A model generated the notes under the pieces. It was not told the origin of the DNA and did not search any database. It saw only the letters and a list, made by a program, of their open reading frames with translations. Both the position numbers and the translations under genes were made by a program. DNA of 64,000 nucleotides, taken from contig CAVRUH010000007.1 of NCBI GenBank assembly GCA_963724325.1, positions 96,001 through 160,000 of the forward strand. Reading direction: 5' to 3'. The DNA comes from Waddliaceae bacterium (GTDB taxonomy: Bacteria; Chlamydiota; Chlamydiia; Chlamydiales; Waddliaceae). Of this stretch, positions 14,465 through 19,138 are shown piece after piece (within the stretch, counting starts at the first letter, position 1; every line of letters starts with the position of its first letter).

Positions 14465-15403
14465 TCAATTTATCGCGATTAAATCTACGCACAAGGCATG
14501 GTACAGCAAGCCCTTTGAGCCGAGGCCTGTTATGACCCAGGTGCGGGCATCTACTTGTCTAACCACAGGATGATGGTCAAATGTTGCTGCTCTTATTCCT
14601 GCCCGGCAATCAATAATCCTTGCATTTGCCAAAGCTGGAATCATGGCAACATACTTCGGCCGCAATTCATCAAGCGCAGTCTTCAGATCAGGCCCCTCAT
14701 TTTCAAATTTTTTTTCAAAGGTGGCGCCGACAATGCAGCTTTTTTTGTCCGGATTCATCACAATATAGGCCTGTGAATTCACTGGAAAGGGGAGAGGCGG
14801 TAAATCTTGGGGCCACTCAAGCTCCAGCAACTGTCCTTTGATAGGATTCAATCGAATATCTGCAAGCTTTGATGCAGCCGCTCCATTCGCAATGATCACC
14901 TGATCAAATGAAGAGAGCTCATCAAGACTTTCTATATGCCTTTTTTCAAGAATTGCTCCTTCGCAGCTTTTCCAAAGGCCTTCTAGATAGGCTTTTGTGT
15001 TTACTGTCCAAGCTGATGAGATAAATATTCCTGGTCGAGACACTGTTCCAGGGACTAGTTCATTACATTTTTCGGCAGAACACCATTGCACATCGGGATA
15101 TTTTTGGGCACATAAAGCATAGTCTTCCGCTTGCCAACCGGTAAGTGCTAGCCTTAACATCCCTGATTGTGCAGCAACGGATGGTTCAAGCGATTTTATA
15201 AGCTTTAAAGTAGCTTCCATCCCTTCTTTCCCCATCCAATTGAGCTTGGAGTGTGCTCCGGCATAAGGGTGAAGAAGTCCTGCAGCAATGCCTGAGGGGC
15301 CGCCAGCTATCCCTTTGGGATCAAAAAGTGTGATTTCTTGATCTTTTAATCTCCATGCTGCAGCCACACCTGCCAGGCCTCCTCCGATGATTGCGATTTT
15401 CAT
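14465..15403 (-). CDS. FAD-dependent oxidoreductase (DAO/MnmC-like)
   Basis: KIAIIGGGLAG, SGIAAGLLHP, PIKGQ, GLGSKG. Confidence 0.88.
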   Translation of the reverse strand: MKIAIIGGGLAGVAAAWRLKDQEITLFDPKGIAGGPSGIAAGLLHPYAGAHSKLNWMGKEGMEATLKLIKSLEPSVAAQSGMLRLALTGWQAEDYALCAQKYPDVQWCSAEKCNELVPGTVSRPGIFISSAWTVNTKAYLEGLWKSCEGAILEKRHIESLDELSSFDQVIIANGAAASKLADIRLNPIKGQLLELEWPQDLPPLPFPVNSQAYIVMNPDKKSCIVGATFEKKFENEGPDLKTALDELRPKYVAMIPALANARIIDCRAGIRAATFDHHPVVRQVDARTWVITGLGSKGLLYHALCVDLIAIN

Positions 15404-16392
15404 AGTGGTATAATTTTCCAGCAGCGATGGATTTTTTGATTGTGGAAATCTACAGGAATTGTTTTTGCCGAAATATCAATGATCGTGCAAGGTTTAAATT
15501 GCTCAGCATCGAAATTGAATTTGCGAGAATTAGTGCTGAAAAATAAGATCCCGCCTGGAGAAAGCAGCTTAAGTCCCTTGGTGATGAGCGAAATGTAGTC
15601 GATTTGAATATCGAACATCTCTTCCATCTTTTTAGAGCGGGATATTGTCGGCGGATCGATCACAATGATATCGTATTTCTCTCCCGAACGGATTTCATCA
15701 TCTAGGAATTTAAGGCAATCTTCTCTAATGAATACATGATTATTGAGAGAGATGTTGTTGAGCGCGAAATTATCTTTCCCCCAAGCGATATAAGTGTTTG
15801 ACATATCGACACTTTTGGTGAAGGAGGCTCCGCCTAGAGCTGCATGAACACTAAAAGAGCAAGTGTAAGCAAATAGATTTAAGACCTTTTTGCCAGTAGA
15901 AAGTCCGCCTACCATTTTGCGGGTTTCCCGATGATCCAGAAACAAACCGGAGTCTAGATAGTCGTTGAGATTTATTTTAAATCGGATGCCATACTCAAGT
16001 ACATTAAAAAAGTCTTTAATTTCATCTACCTTCTCATATTGCTCGGTCTTTTTTCGCTTGATCCTTGTCCGCCAGTGGATTGTTTTGGGTTCTACATTAA
16101 AAATGGAACAAATGGCCTGCTCTGCTTCATCCTTGAGCTCAATAGGCGGTTCATCGCTATCCCTTGTACTAGTAAAAAACTGTACACAGAAACGACCATC
16201 GTAATAGTCAATCACAATAGGATATTCTTTAATGTCACGATCGTAAATGCGAAAACAATTCGTCACTGTCCGCTTTGCCCATTTCCGGACGTGGCGGTAG
16301 TTTTTTCTCATTCGATTTTTCAGAGGAGAACTCTTGTCCTCCCCATCAGAGATATCTGGTAATGTTACACTAGCTTCCATCATGCCAACCAT
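15400..16392 (-). CDS. Class I SAM-dependent rRNA methyltransferase (RlmK/RlmI-like)
   Basis: FRIYDRDI, DSGLFLDHR, LNLFAYT, VDMSNTY, IDPPT; the start may instead be 16383 or 16380. Confidence 0.88.
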   Translation of the reverse strand: MVGMMEASVTLPDISDGEDKSSPLKNRMRKNYRHVRKWAKRTVTNCFRIYDRDIKEYPIVIDYYDGRFCVQFFTSTRDSDEPPIELKDEAEQAICSIFNVEPKTIHWRTRIKRKKTEQYEKVDEIKDFFNVLEYGIRFKINLNDYLDSGLFLDHRETRKMVGGLSTGKKVLNLFAYTCSFSVHAALGGASFTKSVDMSNTYIAWGKDNFALNNISLNNHVFIREDCLKFLDDEIRSGEKYDIIVIDPPTISRSKKMEEMFDIQIDYISLITKGLKLLSPGGILFFSTNSRKFNFDAEQFKPCTIIDISAKTIPVDFHNQKIHRCWKIIPL

Positions 16393-18038
16393 TATACATC
16401 ATCGATGAATAAAAAAAACTTCCTATCTTTCTCCCATCCTGCCCATCCTGCCCCATCACTACTCAATTGGCAATTTTCATAAAGCATTTTCGGTGATATG
16501 CAATGCATGATTTTTACCTCGCCTTTGGTTATGATAATTTTTTCAACTATTAAACGCACTAGTTTTTGCTTCTCATTGAATGGCAAATCTGGAGCCGATT
16601 TTTTAACTCTTTCTAAAATACTTTCAAAAGCATGCTCCCAACCGGATCCTATTTCTTTCATAAGTTTTAAATTTAATCGTTCCTTTTTCTCGTTCTCAAG
16701 TTCGCCTCTTCTTTTTTCTAACCCCTGGGCTCTTTGACTTAGAGAAGTTAAATCTAATAAACCACTTTGATATGCATCTAAAAGTCGCTCTCGTTCTTTT
16801 ATAAGCTTTTCTAATTCTTTTCTCATCGAAATTTCCTGCCTCTCGATTTCCTCGATATTTCCGCTTTCCTTTTCTCTTCTTTTAAACTCTTCCTGCAACA
16901 TAAATGGATTTTGAAGCATTTGAATTATTTCATTATAGACCAAATCATCGAGCTCATCCTGCTGTATATATCCATTAGAACATTTTGGTATTTTATTATC
17001 CGAATGGCTTCGACAATGATAATAATTTTTACTTATTCCCTTATATCTTCTCATTCTTTTATAAAATTGACAACCACATTCGCCGCACGTGATTAATCCT
17101 TGAAGCAAGGAAGGTTCTTTGGTATTTCTTAAGGCTAATTCTTTATTTTTATTTATATATTCCTGTGCTGTTTCAAAATCACTTTCACTAATTATAATTG
17201 GAATATTTATCTCGTACCAAGAGTCTTCATTAGTTTTTTTTCGTGGATTTTTTGGCTTCAGCCGTCTTAAGCCTTTATAATGCCTTATTTTATCTATACC
17301 CTCATACTTTTCTGATTTACCATAGGCTGCAGTGCCTATATAAGCCTTATTTTTTAATATCCCTAAGATGGTTGCTGGAAACCAATAGGAATTTCCTTTT
17401 GGGCTTTTAATTTGGACCTCGCTCAACCTTCGACAAATTCCATTTAATGAAAGCCTCTCATGAACATATAAATAAAATATTTTTCTTACAACATTCGCGT
17501 CTGTTTCAACGATTTCAATCACCGTTTGACGTTCATTTTTTATCCTCTGATAGCCATATGGTAGCTTAGGAAGAATAGCTGGATCTCCGCTTTTTGCTTT
17601 ATGAATAGTACCTCGACGAGATCGATCTAATATTAATGCTCTTTCATATTCAGCAAAAATCCCCTGAAAATGAGTAAACATTATTGCTTCAGGAGTGTCA
17701 CCTTGAGGAACATTTCTAATGAAAAGAACCTTCACTCCACATCGTCGAAATTCATCTAACAAAATAAGTTGATGAGGATAATTTCTGGCTAACCTATCTG
17801 GTGCATAGATCAAAATCGCGTCGACAGACTCTGTTCGTATCAAATCTCGTAAATCATCTAAAGCAGGTCTTTGAAGACTTTGACCACTTATACCGTTATC
17901 AAGAAAAAGCCACGTTTCTGGAATTTGATATCCTTCTTTGAGTCCAAATTCTCGAAGAACCAATTCTTGACTTTCGATCGTTTCATCTTCTTTTTGCTTC
18001 TGTGAGGAGACTCTGGCATATATTGCGGCTTTCTTCAT
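16392..18038 (-). CDS. Large serine recombinase (resolvase + recombinase + Zn-ribbon + coiled-coil domains)
   Basis: AIYARVSS catalytic Ser, DNGISG, RPAL, DRLAR, PYGY, LLQGLITCGECG, YYHC..C; last 18 codons lie outside the element. Confidence 0.95.
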   Translation of the reverse strand: MKKAAIYARVSSQKQKEDETIESQELVLREFGLKEGYQIPETWLFLDNGISGQSLQRPALDDLRDLIRTESVDAILIYAPDRLARNYPHQLILLDEFRRCGVKVLFIRNVPQGDTPEAIMFTHFQGIFAEYERALILDRSRRGTIHKAKSGDPAILPKLPYGYQRIKNERQTVIEIVETDANVVRKIFYLYVHERLSLNGICRRLSEVQIKSPKGNSYWFPATILGILKNKAYIGTAAYGKSEKYEGIDKIRHYKGLRRLKPKNPRKKTNEDSWYEINIPIIISESDFETAQEYINKNKELALRNTKEPSLLQGLITCGECGCQFYKRMRRYKGISKNYYHCRSHSDNKIPKCSNGYIQQDELDDLVYNEIIQMLQNPFMLQEEFKRREKESGNIEEIERQEISMRKELEKLIKERERLLDAYQSGLLDLTSLSQRAQGLEKRRGELENEKKERLNLKLMKEIGSGWEHAFESILERVKKSAPDLPFNEKQKLVRLIVEKIIITKGEVKIMHCISPKMLYENCQLSSDGAGWAGWEKDRKFFLFIDDV

Positions 18039-18274
18039 GATGGAGCTCCTGATTGATGGATGACCGAATTGATATTGTGCTGTTGAGCAATATCGCTAAG
18101 CCCTTGATTAATTTTGCTCTTTGATTCCTCTGAGGGTGATATTCGAGTACAATTTTTTGGACTTTGATGCATTTTGACAATGTTCTGAGCCTTGTTTCGA
18201 GAAGAATATTTACCGATTGTACTTCTATCAAACATTTTCTCAAAACAAATTTTGCCAATTGAGTATTGATGGGG
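16451..18274 (-). mobile_element. Minimal serine-recombinase IS-like element (1,824 bp)
   Basis: TIRs CCCCATCACTACTCAATTGGCAA (16451-16473) and TTGCCAATTGAGTATTGATGGGG (18252-18274), 22/23 match; TG on both sides (16449-50, 18275-76); removing it restores a REP unit. Confidence 0.88.
18035..18235 (-). CDS. Small ORF upstream of the recombinase (ATGA overlap); an alternative frame 17983..~18180 is also open
   Basis: Stop codon overlaps the recombinase ATG; in frame with the recombinase across the predicted circle junction. Confidence 0.35.
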   Translation of the reverse strand: MFDRSTIGKYSSRNKAQNIVKMHQSPKNCTRISPSEESKSKINQGLSDIAQQHNINSVIHQSGAPS

Positions 18275-18550
18275 TGCCGCTTGCGATCATGCATATCCTG
18301 TTATTCCCTAAGGAAACAGGATATGCATGATCGCAAGCGGCAGGATATGAAGGATAGGAAGAAAATAGGAAGAAAATAAAAGGTAAATAAAAAGGCAGTT
18401 TAAACATATAACTATCCTCTCTTTTCCCTTCTTATCCTTCGTATCCTGCCGCTTGCGATCATGCATATCCTGTTATTCCCTAAGGAAACACGATACGCAT
18501 GATCGCAAGCGGCATGATGGGCAGGATGGGCAGGATGGGAAGAAGATGTA
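18275..18550. repeat. BIME/REP-like mosaic: two ~70-bp palindromic units plus CATCCTGCC / GGCAGGATG flanks (left flank displaced to 16411-16450)
   Basis: TGCCGCTTGCGATCATGCATATCCTG-ttattccctaaggaaa-CAGGATATGCATGATCGCAAGCGGCA at ~18275-18342 and again at ~18447-18514. Confidence 0.88.
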
Positions 18551-18595
18551 AAAAAAAGTGGATAGTAGATATTGCATTGGTGTATAGTGTTGAAC

Positions 18596-19138
18596 ATGAA
18601 GAAAGATAACAATATTCGCAATTTGCTTGGTGTCCTCGGGGCTGCAGTCTTCGGAGCCTGCTTGCTAAGCTATTTACTGGTAGTCAATTTTGGACCTTCC
18701 GGCAGATACAAAGTAGCCAATATCCTCCTCGAACCTATAATCGCTGAAAAAGTTGACTTTTACGATGGTAAATCGCGCTATATTTTTCAACGATTTGAAT
18801 TCCTCTATTTTGACCAGACAACAAATAAATGGGATCGCGAACAGCTTTCCGAAGATCAATATAAGAAAATTTATGCGATCATCAAGAGCGAACTAAGCGT
18901 TTTATCTGTAACTGACGAGGTACGCGGCATGTTCAGCCAAACAAATCCAGCGATTTTATCAATCGTCGTCCGTAATGAATCCAAAGAAAATACAAAGTCA
19001 TTGCAAGAAATGCAAATTGCCGATCATGGTGACTATTACCGTATCCTTTTAAGAGATGACTCACCCACGCCAAACTGGGTCTATTTTTACCATCCTCAAA
19101 TTCTCGAACAAATGAAGCATGCAATCAAAAATGAGTAG
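18596..19138 (+). CDS. Hypothetical protein with N-terminal membrane anchor
   Basis: ATG at 18596; single TM helix; overlaps the next gene. Confidence 0.7.
   Translation: MKKDNNIRNLLGVLGAAVFGACLLSYLLVVNFGPSGRYKVANILLEPIIAEKVDFYDGKSRYIFQRFEFLYFDQTTNKWDREQLSEDQYKKIYAIIKSELSVLSVTDEVRGMFSQTNPAILSIVVRNESKENTKSLQEMQIADHGDYYRILLRDDSPTPNWVYFYHPQILEQMKHAIKNE

Follow-up and report, generated by a model that had tools for sequence, protein, structure and literature searches.

The window analyzed here is a 64,000 nucleotide (nt) stretch of the genome of a Waddliaceae bacterium of the Chlamydiota (GenBank assembly GCA_963724325.1, contig CAVRUH010000007.1, positions 96,001–160,000). At positions 16449–18276 of the window lies a compact element whose only long open reading frame (ORF) encodes a large serine recombinase (LSR). 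The insertion unit is 1826 bp in length, i.e. 1824 bp between two TG dinucleotides (16451–18274) together with one TG. The left TG, the putative cross-over site, is at 16449–16450; a TG in this place flanks all seven copies of the element in the genome and is found as a single TG in empty paralogous sites. The right copy of the core dinucleotide is at 18275–18276, as placed by the sequence and by comparison of the seven copies. Directly inside the two TGs are terminal inverted repeats of 23 nt, the left at 16451–16473 and the right at 18252–18274, each resembling one half of an attP site. The repeat finder lists them as a single pair (I6, 96% complementary) and the two arms are reverse-complementary at 22 of 23 positions. 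A preliminary description of this DNA had reported a 1,824-bp unit with 23-bp inverted repeats (22/23) and TG on both sides, and this is confirmed by the sequence and by the repeat finder.

The LSR gene is on the minus strand at positions 16392–18038, with an ATG at 18038 and 548 codons; the assignment is from Pfam, alignment and structure matches. Analysis by Pfam shows a Resolvase domain (PF00239, 6e-32) at residues 4–152, a Recombinase domain (PF07508, 1.2e-17) and a Zn_ribbon_recom domain (PF13408, 3e-13). No further Pfam family is found in the protein at E-values up to 0.01, and DUF4368 is not among the matches. The protein thus displays the catalytic domain with N-terminal serine, the recombinase domain and the Cys4 zinc ribbon that characterize large serine recombinases. 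In an alignment of 34 homologues the zinc-ribbon cysteines C318, C321, C342 and C353 are invariant, and R9, S11/S12, R82, R85 and E130–E132 are invariant or nearly invariant. Among solved structures, the SPbeta LSR is the best match (E-value = 8.5e-19, aligned over residues 48–504). The best phage matches are Wolbachia WO recombinases, with 35%–37% identity over about 70% of the protein. A fragment of a second, unrelated serine recombinase is present in the same genome (C11:65487–66173) and is 29% identical over residues 2–237.

The preliminary description called the insertion sequence intact. The LSR domains are complete, but the reading frame has no stop codon within the element; it passes through the left repeat and terminates in the flanking DNA. 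The left terminal inverted repeat (16451–16473) therefore also codes for the LSR C-terminal sequence ..CQLSSDG, and the C-terminal consensus across homologues is ENCQL..DG. In the window copy the final 19 LSR codons and the stop are outside the element, in the target flank. The seven genomic copies end 3–20 codons into their flanks and give predicted proteins of 533–550 amino acids (aa). Three close relatives (P0003, P0007 and P0015) have LSRs that are 80%–90% identical to that of the window and end in the same repeat-encoded ..CQLSxDGA, after which their sequences diverge (AG.., RYAR, MLAIW). This suggests, from the protein ends, that they sit in different target flanks. In the window, the LSR stop at 16392 abuts the start of a same-strand gene for a SAM-dependent methyltransferase (15400–16392), and read-through from the element into this gene is conceivable.

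The genome that carries the element consists of 2.37 Mb in 11 contigs, with a quality estimate of 84.6% complete. Seven full-length matches to positions 16449–18276 are found in it. Five of these are identical, and the other two have the same three single nucleotide polymorphisms (SNPs). The end sequence is found exactly 14 times, which accounts for the seven complete units; solo ends and miniature derivatives are absent. All seven copies have a TG at either end and a common flanking motif, and all are in one orientation relative to an asymmetric target. The break in similarity coincides with the tips of the inverted repeats in each of the seven. A search for other copies and their flanks had been proposed as a check on the unit, and it returns the same boundaries and the same flanking motif throughout. 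The element is short, carries mobility functions only, is bounded by defined ends and occurs several times in the genome, at loci that are unrelated, which is how an insertion sequence is defined.

Three of the copies are found inside 6 kb at C1:24024–29734, a region of the genome outside of the window. The two copies with the three SNPs are located there and have their left ends facing one another, 66 bp apart. Presumably these 66 bp are two arms of one repeat unit. Of public data, 12 runs were available, all of which consist of assembled contigs and none of which is recorded as RNA. Four of them, of low depth, were compared with the region; X1–X3 are from one study and X5 is from another. 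The contigs of both studies break at or near the element ends into alternative flanks, in the manner expected of a repeat. X5 contigs include the flank of the copy at C1:440990, and one Logan contig has one of the three SNPs that distinguish the copies.

The left flank of each copy ends in ..(T/C)ATCC-TG and the right flank starts with TG-CCGCTTGCGATCnTGCATATCCTGTT, and beyond this the seven copies are in unrelated DNA. The junction layout is accordingly ..ATCC-TG-[unit]-TG-CCGCTTGCGATC.. in all seven, and the flanks diverge past about 40 bp. In the window the left arm of the target site (..CCCATCC, then TG) is at positions 16425–16448 and mirrors positions 18511–18547 (repeat pairs I4 and I7). 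The right arm of 26 nt is at 18277–18302 and contributes to a perfect hairpin of 28 bp with 18315–18342 (pair I3). An unoccupied paralogous target site is present at 18427–18474 (second copy of D1; I2; contig C7 114449), and its TG, at 18447–18448, is only 170 bp from the element.

Target sites of this type are abundant. The 26-nt right arm has 257 occurrences in the genome at up to five mismatches, and there are 123 exact 18-mer target sites. When the 14-nt core is allowed up to one mismatch, 208 sites are found; seven are occupied by the element, and in the other 201 only a single TG separates the two arms. From these 201 empty sites a consensus of ATC(C)T(T)CATATCC-TG is obtained, and it is strong between about −13 and +27. 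The arms constitute the terminal inverted repeats of a palindromic sequence of about 160 nt, e.g. 18315–18477, that resembles a miniature inverted-repeat transposable element (MITE). In this repeat, which is present at 18275–18547 of the window and throughout the genome, abutting MITE-like units often form perfect 28-bp hairpins, and each arm contains two direct sub-repeats of the form ATCnTnCATATCCTG located 24 nt apart. An Rfam scan of positions 16200–18700 shows no RNA family at gathering score; there are 16 sub-threshold matches to microRNA precursors (E-values up to 1), all of which fall in repeat hairpins of the flanks and not within the unit.

The same repeat is present in large numbers in a second genome of the genus (G001), where the 18-nt site has 233 matches, arranged as pairs that point outward and are separated by about 100 nt, and the element is absent from that genome. 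Other genomes of the family have few or no sites: three have none and a fourth has one match with two mismatches. The “attB” of the element is thus the arm of a genus-specific MITE-like repeat that is older than the element. The preliminary description had proposed an empty site in which the two arms meet across one TG, and the 201 paralogous sites bear this out. It had also proposed a complete candidate attP/attB set. The sites can be read as proposed, but the attB is not unique and is shared by an abundant repeat.

The tetranucleotide TGCC is common to both junctions, and for this reason the sequence by itself fixes the cross-over only to within 4 nt. The symmetry of the inverted repeats, together with the same 13-nt spacing in relatives of the element, points to a cross-over at TG. 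Short att sites and exchange at a 2-bp core are likewise indicated by the 201 empty paralogues, with the TGCC ambiguity, and by a 2-nt overlap in a 38% identical relative that is described below.

The element belongs to a sizeable family. A protein search gives more than 100 clusters of homologues with 40%–90% identity, one of them labelled Chlamydiales; most are on contigs of 1.8–2.1 kb, as expected of a collapsed repeat. A single LSR protein used as query of genome contigs gave no match, and the loci were obtained with an alignment of 34 homologues as query, which returned 38 genome loci and 79 metagenome loci. End repeats were looked for at 44 loci. Both ends could be placed in 16, which with the window element gives 17 elements; the remaining 28 are more distant LSRs, are on short contigs or have ends missed by the ungapped search. 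The 17 elements are 1814–1859 bp in length. The LSRs of the relatives are 41%–64% identical to the LSR of the window, and most are from metagenomes and from metagenome-assembled genomes (MAGs) of Chlamydiae. A longer version was not found among 124 related loci. In 41 related genomes, 13 show a serine recombinase match, and outside of the element's own genome none of the matches exceeds 35% identity (31% for alignments of at least 200 residues).

The ends of the family share a motif, (C/A)ACC(G/A)TC .. CAAT(T/A/G)G(A/G)C, with the tip located 13 nt outside CAAT. Each element has the same dinucleotide on both sides, and this dinucleotide varies between members: CA (the window element, read in the LSR sense), GT, TG, AA, TA, CT and AT. 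The flanks of several members hold small GC-rich hairpins, which suggests that targeting of repeats may be common in the family. A Chlamydiae MAG (CAWCVY01) contains seven loci of a 49% identical member, and four of the five in which both junctions are readable show TG on both sides. Two loci on one contig of this MAG, L010 and L016, have unlike dinucleotides at their junctions, and their flanks are inverted copies of one left-type flank. Such an arrangement would be expected from recombination between the two copies with inversion of the intervening DNA. An Actinomycetota MAG contains two units of about 2.0 kb (L018 and L019, 2677–4672), in which the LSR is 34% identical and the inverted ends are 25 bp long (24/25); their flanks are different and both have GT on both sides. 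LSR-only units may thus be present outside of the Chlamydiae-associated family as well.

Related units of a somewhat different type are found in rhizobia. The best plasmid matches to the LSR have 34%–38% identity and include units of 2.2 kb that consist of a CopG-type ribbon-helix-helix (RHH) gene and an LSR gene between inverted ends of 28–34 bp. These units interrupt the reverse-transcriptase genes of group II introns. The unit in plasmid pUSDA76 of Bradyrhizobium elkanii USDA 76 (L147, 2424–4659) is 2236 bp in length, with 34-bp inverted ends and an LSR that is 38% identical; a unit in Mesorhizobium sp. AR02 is at about 2417–4661 of L148. Among 19 matching Bradyrhizobium plasmid records, 17 match through the flanks alone, and most of these have an uninterrupted intron gene in which the flanks are adjacent. 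When the empty allele L149 is compared with the occupied allele, the left and right identities overlap by exactly 2 nt, AT. The two alleles are a true empty and occupied pair for a relative of the element, and the pair behaves as the core of a serine recombinase should. The records annotate the LSR merely as “recombinase family protein”, and no paper on the RHH-LSR units was found in a full-text literature search.

The rhizobial units resemble the Waddliaceae element in several respects: a small gene is located upstream of the LSR gene, the LSR frame extends across the end repeat, insertion is into a multi-copy mobile element and the core is 2 bp. They differ in that the small gene is of the CopG RHH type, which has no detectable similarity to the small gene orfS of the window element, and in that the LSR frame of the circle form does not close on a start codon.

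The preliminary description had the LSR as the only long gene of the unit. It is the only long ORF, but a small conserved gene, here termed orfS, is located upstream of it in another frame. The gene is on the minus strand at positions 17983–18180, has a TTG start and 65 codons, and overlaps the start of the LSR gene. The leader that separates the right repeat from the start of the LSR gene is 236 nt, and the frame of orfS differs from that of the LSR. A conserved peptide, ..EYxPQRNQxxxLIxGLAxLL.., is found across the family, and an ATG, GTG or TTG is present at one alignment position of orfS in 16 of 16 sequences. Substitutions are mostly at third codon positions and include switches between AGR and CGN (Arg) and between TTR and CTN (Leu). 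The ratio of nonsynonymous to synonymous polymorphism (pN/pS) is 0.34 in the orfS frame, compared with 1.74 and 0.64 in the other two frames, as calculated from 11 of the 17 elements with the six most divergent or gapped left out. By this measure, orfS is under purifying selection. The predicted fold is a single long helix that is confident only over residues 20–33, with a mean predicted local distance difference test score (pLDDT) of 67.

A promoter-like site is located just inside the right end, at positions 18216–18243 on the minus strand, with TTGAGA and TACAAT separated by 16 nt and 10 of 12 positions matching. Hexamers of this type (TTGAAA or TTGGAA, then TAnnnT) align by eye across the family. 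A conserved block immediately interior to the right repeat was also considered as coding sequence (pN/pS of 0.69, versus 1.17 and 1.18); the promoter-like hexamer pair is the simpler explanation of its conservation. Both orfS and the promoter-like site, together with the LSR frame that lacks a stop codon and closes on the circle (see below), are new relative to the preliminary description.

The element is very probably an autonomous insertion sequence that uses a canonical large serine recombinase as its transposase. This rests on the seven near-identical copies at different loci, on the single orientation of all seven and on the boundaries defined by the 201 empty sites. The earlier proposal of an intact, cargo-free LSR insertion sequence agrees with this and is supported, likewise by the sharp boundaries and the relatives of the same architecture. 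In the proposed mechanism, which follows the one established for serine recombinases, dimers of the LSR would bind the two ends, each of which would be half attP and half attB. The bound ends would synapse, with 2-nt staggered cuts at TG, rotation and religation. Excision would release a circle, with its ends joined around one TG as a near-palindromic attP of 48 bp, and the repeat arm would be restored. The attP of the circle would then recombine with another copy of the repeat arm, and the asymmetric TG would set the orientation. Transcription from the promoter-like site inside the right end would give orfS and then the LSR, and the predicted helical protein of about 65 aa encoded by orfS would allow attL x attR excision to proceed. 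The proposed role of orfS as a helper or directionality factor is the least supported step of the scheme. Candidates for licensing excision are orfS or a change in the C-terminus of the LSR.

Several observations weigh against this interpretation or parts of it. Canonical LSRs need a directionality factor for excision, and serine recombination is conservative, so that the rise to seven copies is not explained by the mechanism itself. The joined-end (attP) arrangement has no match in 2.9 Mb, which comprises the whole genome and all examined loci. In the four public sets of contigs, which carry no junction information, no right end was connected to a left end and no contig passed over the unit, so that neither circles nor restored or polymorphic sites were seen. 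There is no orthologous empty site for the seven loci. The boundary evidence in this genome is paralogous, because the only same-genus genome, G001, is diverged (about 68% DNA identity) and shows no synteny at the element locus. The directionality-factor role of orfS has several points on the negative side. No Pfam or PHROG family was found for orfS, and its comparison with the rhizobial RHH proteins by hhalign gives a probability of 0.1, i.e. no similarity. The predicted complex of the LSR with orfS has an ipSAE score (interaction prediction score from aligned errors) of 0.43, versus 0.00 for the best of three controls, which the tool rates as weak; the weak-support band (ipSAE of 0.60 or under) held 18 of 157 solved complexes and both of the mismatches that passed. 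In these runs the partner has a pLDDT of at least 54 and the contact agreement is at least 76%. With respect to the promoter, there are nine promoter-like matches in the region, with 8.1 expected, and thus no excess.

Among other explanations, the one that survives best is nevertheless very unlikely. It holds that the unit is immobile and has spread passively, by duplication or gene conversion between MITE-like repeats, and that the LSR is a domesticated invertase or resolvase. Every insertion is within one repeat family, where homologous exchange is possible, and the clustering of three copies within 6 kb, two of them with common SNPs, would be in keeping with it, as would the apparent inter-copy rearrangements at L010 and L016 of the second Chlamydiae MAG. 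However, the element is identical or nearly so everywhere while the surrounding repeat arms differ from copy to copy, and in all seven the similarity ends exactly at the tips of the inverted repeats. Passive spread also has to account for the 201 sites that lack the unit and have their two arms precisely adjacent, and for diverged family members that occupy unrelated targets in other genomes.

It is still less probable that the unit is a cut-and-paste element with a 2-bp target duplication, mobilized by a transposase encoded elsewhere and carrying the LSR as a passenger. Some DDE elements also leave inverted repeats and a repeated dinucleotide. However, there is no other long ORF in the unit, and across the family the inverted repeats overlap and co-evolve with the coding region of the LSR C-terminus. 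The dinucleotide is constant within a lineage and changes between lineages, as the core of a recombinase would, and insertion in strictly one orientation into an asymmetric target is in keeping with site-specific recombination. Least probable of all is a remnant origin, in which a larger integrative element (phage or island) would have lost its cargo and left the two repeats as its attL and attR. LSR genes are usually at one end of prophages and islands, and Wolbachia WO phage recombinases match at 35%–37% identity. However, the seven copies are of identical length, the relatives in many metagenomes are equally 1.8 kb and no longer version was found among the 124 related loci.

The absence of an LSR stop codon has a further consequence if the insertion sequence is excised as a circle. 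With a single core dinucleotide between the joined ends, the 1826-bp circle has an ORF of 609 codons that runs through the junction and the whole leader. The leader frame that is continuous with the LSR frame in the joined circle (18035–18274, minus strand) is open from the tip of the element to a TGA that overlaps the LSR ATG (ATGA). The same closure at TGA is found in 15 of the 17 family members, and the exceptions, L054 and L014, stop earlier. In 12 of these 15, the closing stop shares bases with an in-frame start codon (ATG or GTG). The lengths of all 17 elements are 2 modulo 3. The segment from the repeat to 40 nt before the LSR match is free of stops in 13 of 17, where shuffles expect 0.16 (chance per element, 0.002–0.021), a comparison in which the 17 members are not independent of one another.

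This leader frame is not an ordinary separate gene, since 4 of the 17 members have no ATG, GTG or TTG in it. An ORF of 66 codons in the same frame (P0002, 18035–18235) was considered as an independent gene and rejected; it has no conserved start, and its ATG is upstream of the predicted promoter. The openness of the leader may in part reflect inherited constraints that orfS (which overlaps it), the repeats and the promoter impose. In the rhizobial cousin the LSR end lacks a stop as well, but the full-circle ORF is absent and the frame stops 30 codons past the junction. The circle-closing frame is a real but unexplained regularity.

One interpretation, which is rather doubtful, is that the element reads its own topological state by way of its reading frame, through a longer LSR isoform and a ribosome restart on the circle. 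As the circle frame closes on its own start, ribosomes that finish could restart at the LSR ATG. The circle would then be biased to integration, and an integrated copy together with orfS would excise. If this is true, control of directionality would be built into the topology of the gene and not into a regulated cofactor.

The clostridial transposases TnpX (Tn4451/Tn4453) and TndX (Tn5397) are LSRs, and their elements show a repeated dinucleotide at the junctions and excise as circles. The Waddliaceae element is similar in that an LSR is the sole mobility enzyme and a dinucleotide is found at both junctions, and excision as a circle is expected here also. It differs in carrying no cargo, whereas those elements are several kb with cargo, and in its target, as TnpX and TndX use many loosely related targets and the present element uses one long defined site that is repeated about 200 times. 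The multi-targeting LSR clade related to TnpX and TndX is reported typically to have DUF4368 (Durrant et al. 2022, PMC10083194). By that description the LSR of the window is unlike the clade, since DUF4368 is absent from it at Pfam E-values up to 0.01.

The serine integrases that work with a directionality factor (SPbeta SprA/SprB, A118, phiC31 and Bxb1) share with the LSR the domain architecture, short att sites and the 2-bp core. Another similarity is the presence, next to the integrase gene, of a small gene that could act as a directionality factor. Unlike phage and island integrases, the integrase module is found alone in 1.8 kb, and with a high-copy repeat as its attB the element acts as a multi-copy insertion sequence. 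An additional difference is the location of an attP half-site inside the integrase coding region, so that integration alters the C-terminus of the protein.

Insertion into REP (repetitive extragenic palindromic) or REP-like repeats is a property of IS110/IS1111 and of the IS3-type IS1397 and ISKpn1, which use DEDD or DDE enzymes and, in the case of IS110, are RNA-guided. The present element resembles them in inserting into an abundant, harmless extragenic palindromic repeat. It differs in that protein-DNA recognition by the LSR is expected, and no Rfam family is found at gathering score. IS607 is the sole serine-recombinase family known in the classification of insertion sequences; its recombinases are small and its members lack inverted repeats. 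Full-text literature searches, which did not extend to ISfinder and subscription journals, gave no account of an insertion sequence that has an LSR alone. The TnpA of IS607 is described as a small serine recombinase whose DNA-binding domain is N-terminal, and the family as one that lacks terminal inverted repeats and shows little target specificity (PMC6188088, PMC4058570). On that description, the element is comparable to IS607 in being a small serine-recombinase insertion sequence without true target duplication. It departs from IS607, as so described, in having the order catalytic domain, recombinase domain and zinc ribbon, in its 23-bp inverted repeats and in its single target sequence.

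With respect to classification, the element represents a compact, cargo-free insertion sequence based on a full LSR, in a family with more than 100 homologue clusters and with cousins in cultivable rhizobia. For genome engineering it offers an LSR of 533 aa with an explicit donor site of about 48 bp. More than 200 natural target variants in one genome, seven of them used, constitute a ready-made specificity map, and the relatives offer different core dinucleotides and different targets. The LSR frame that lacks a stop codon, together with orfS, poses a testable question on how the direction of serine recombination is controlled in a two-gene element. The LSR lineage has become multi-copy without relaxed specificity, by having as its target a high-copy selfish repeat, which is a MITE-like unit in the Waddliaceae bacterium and a group II intron in rhizobia.

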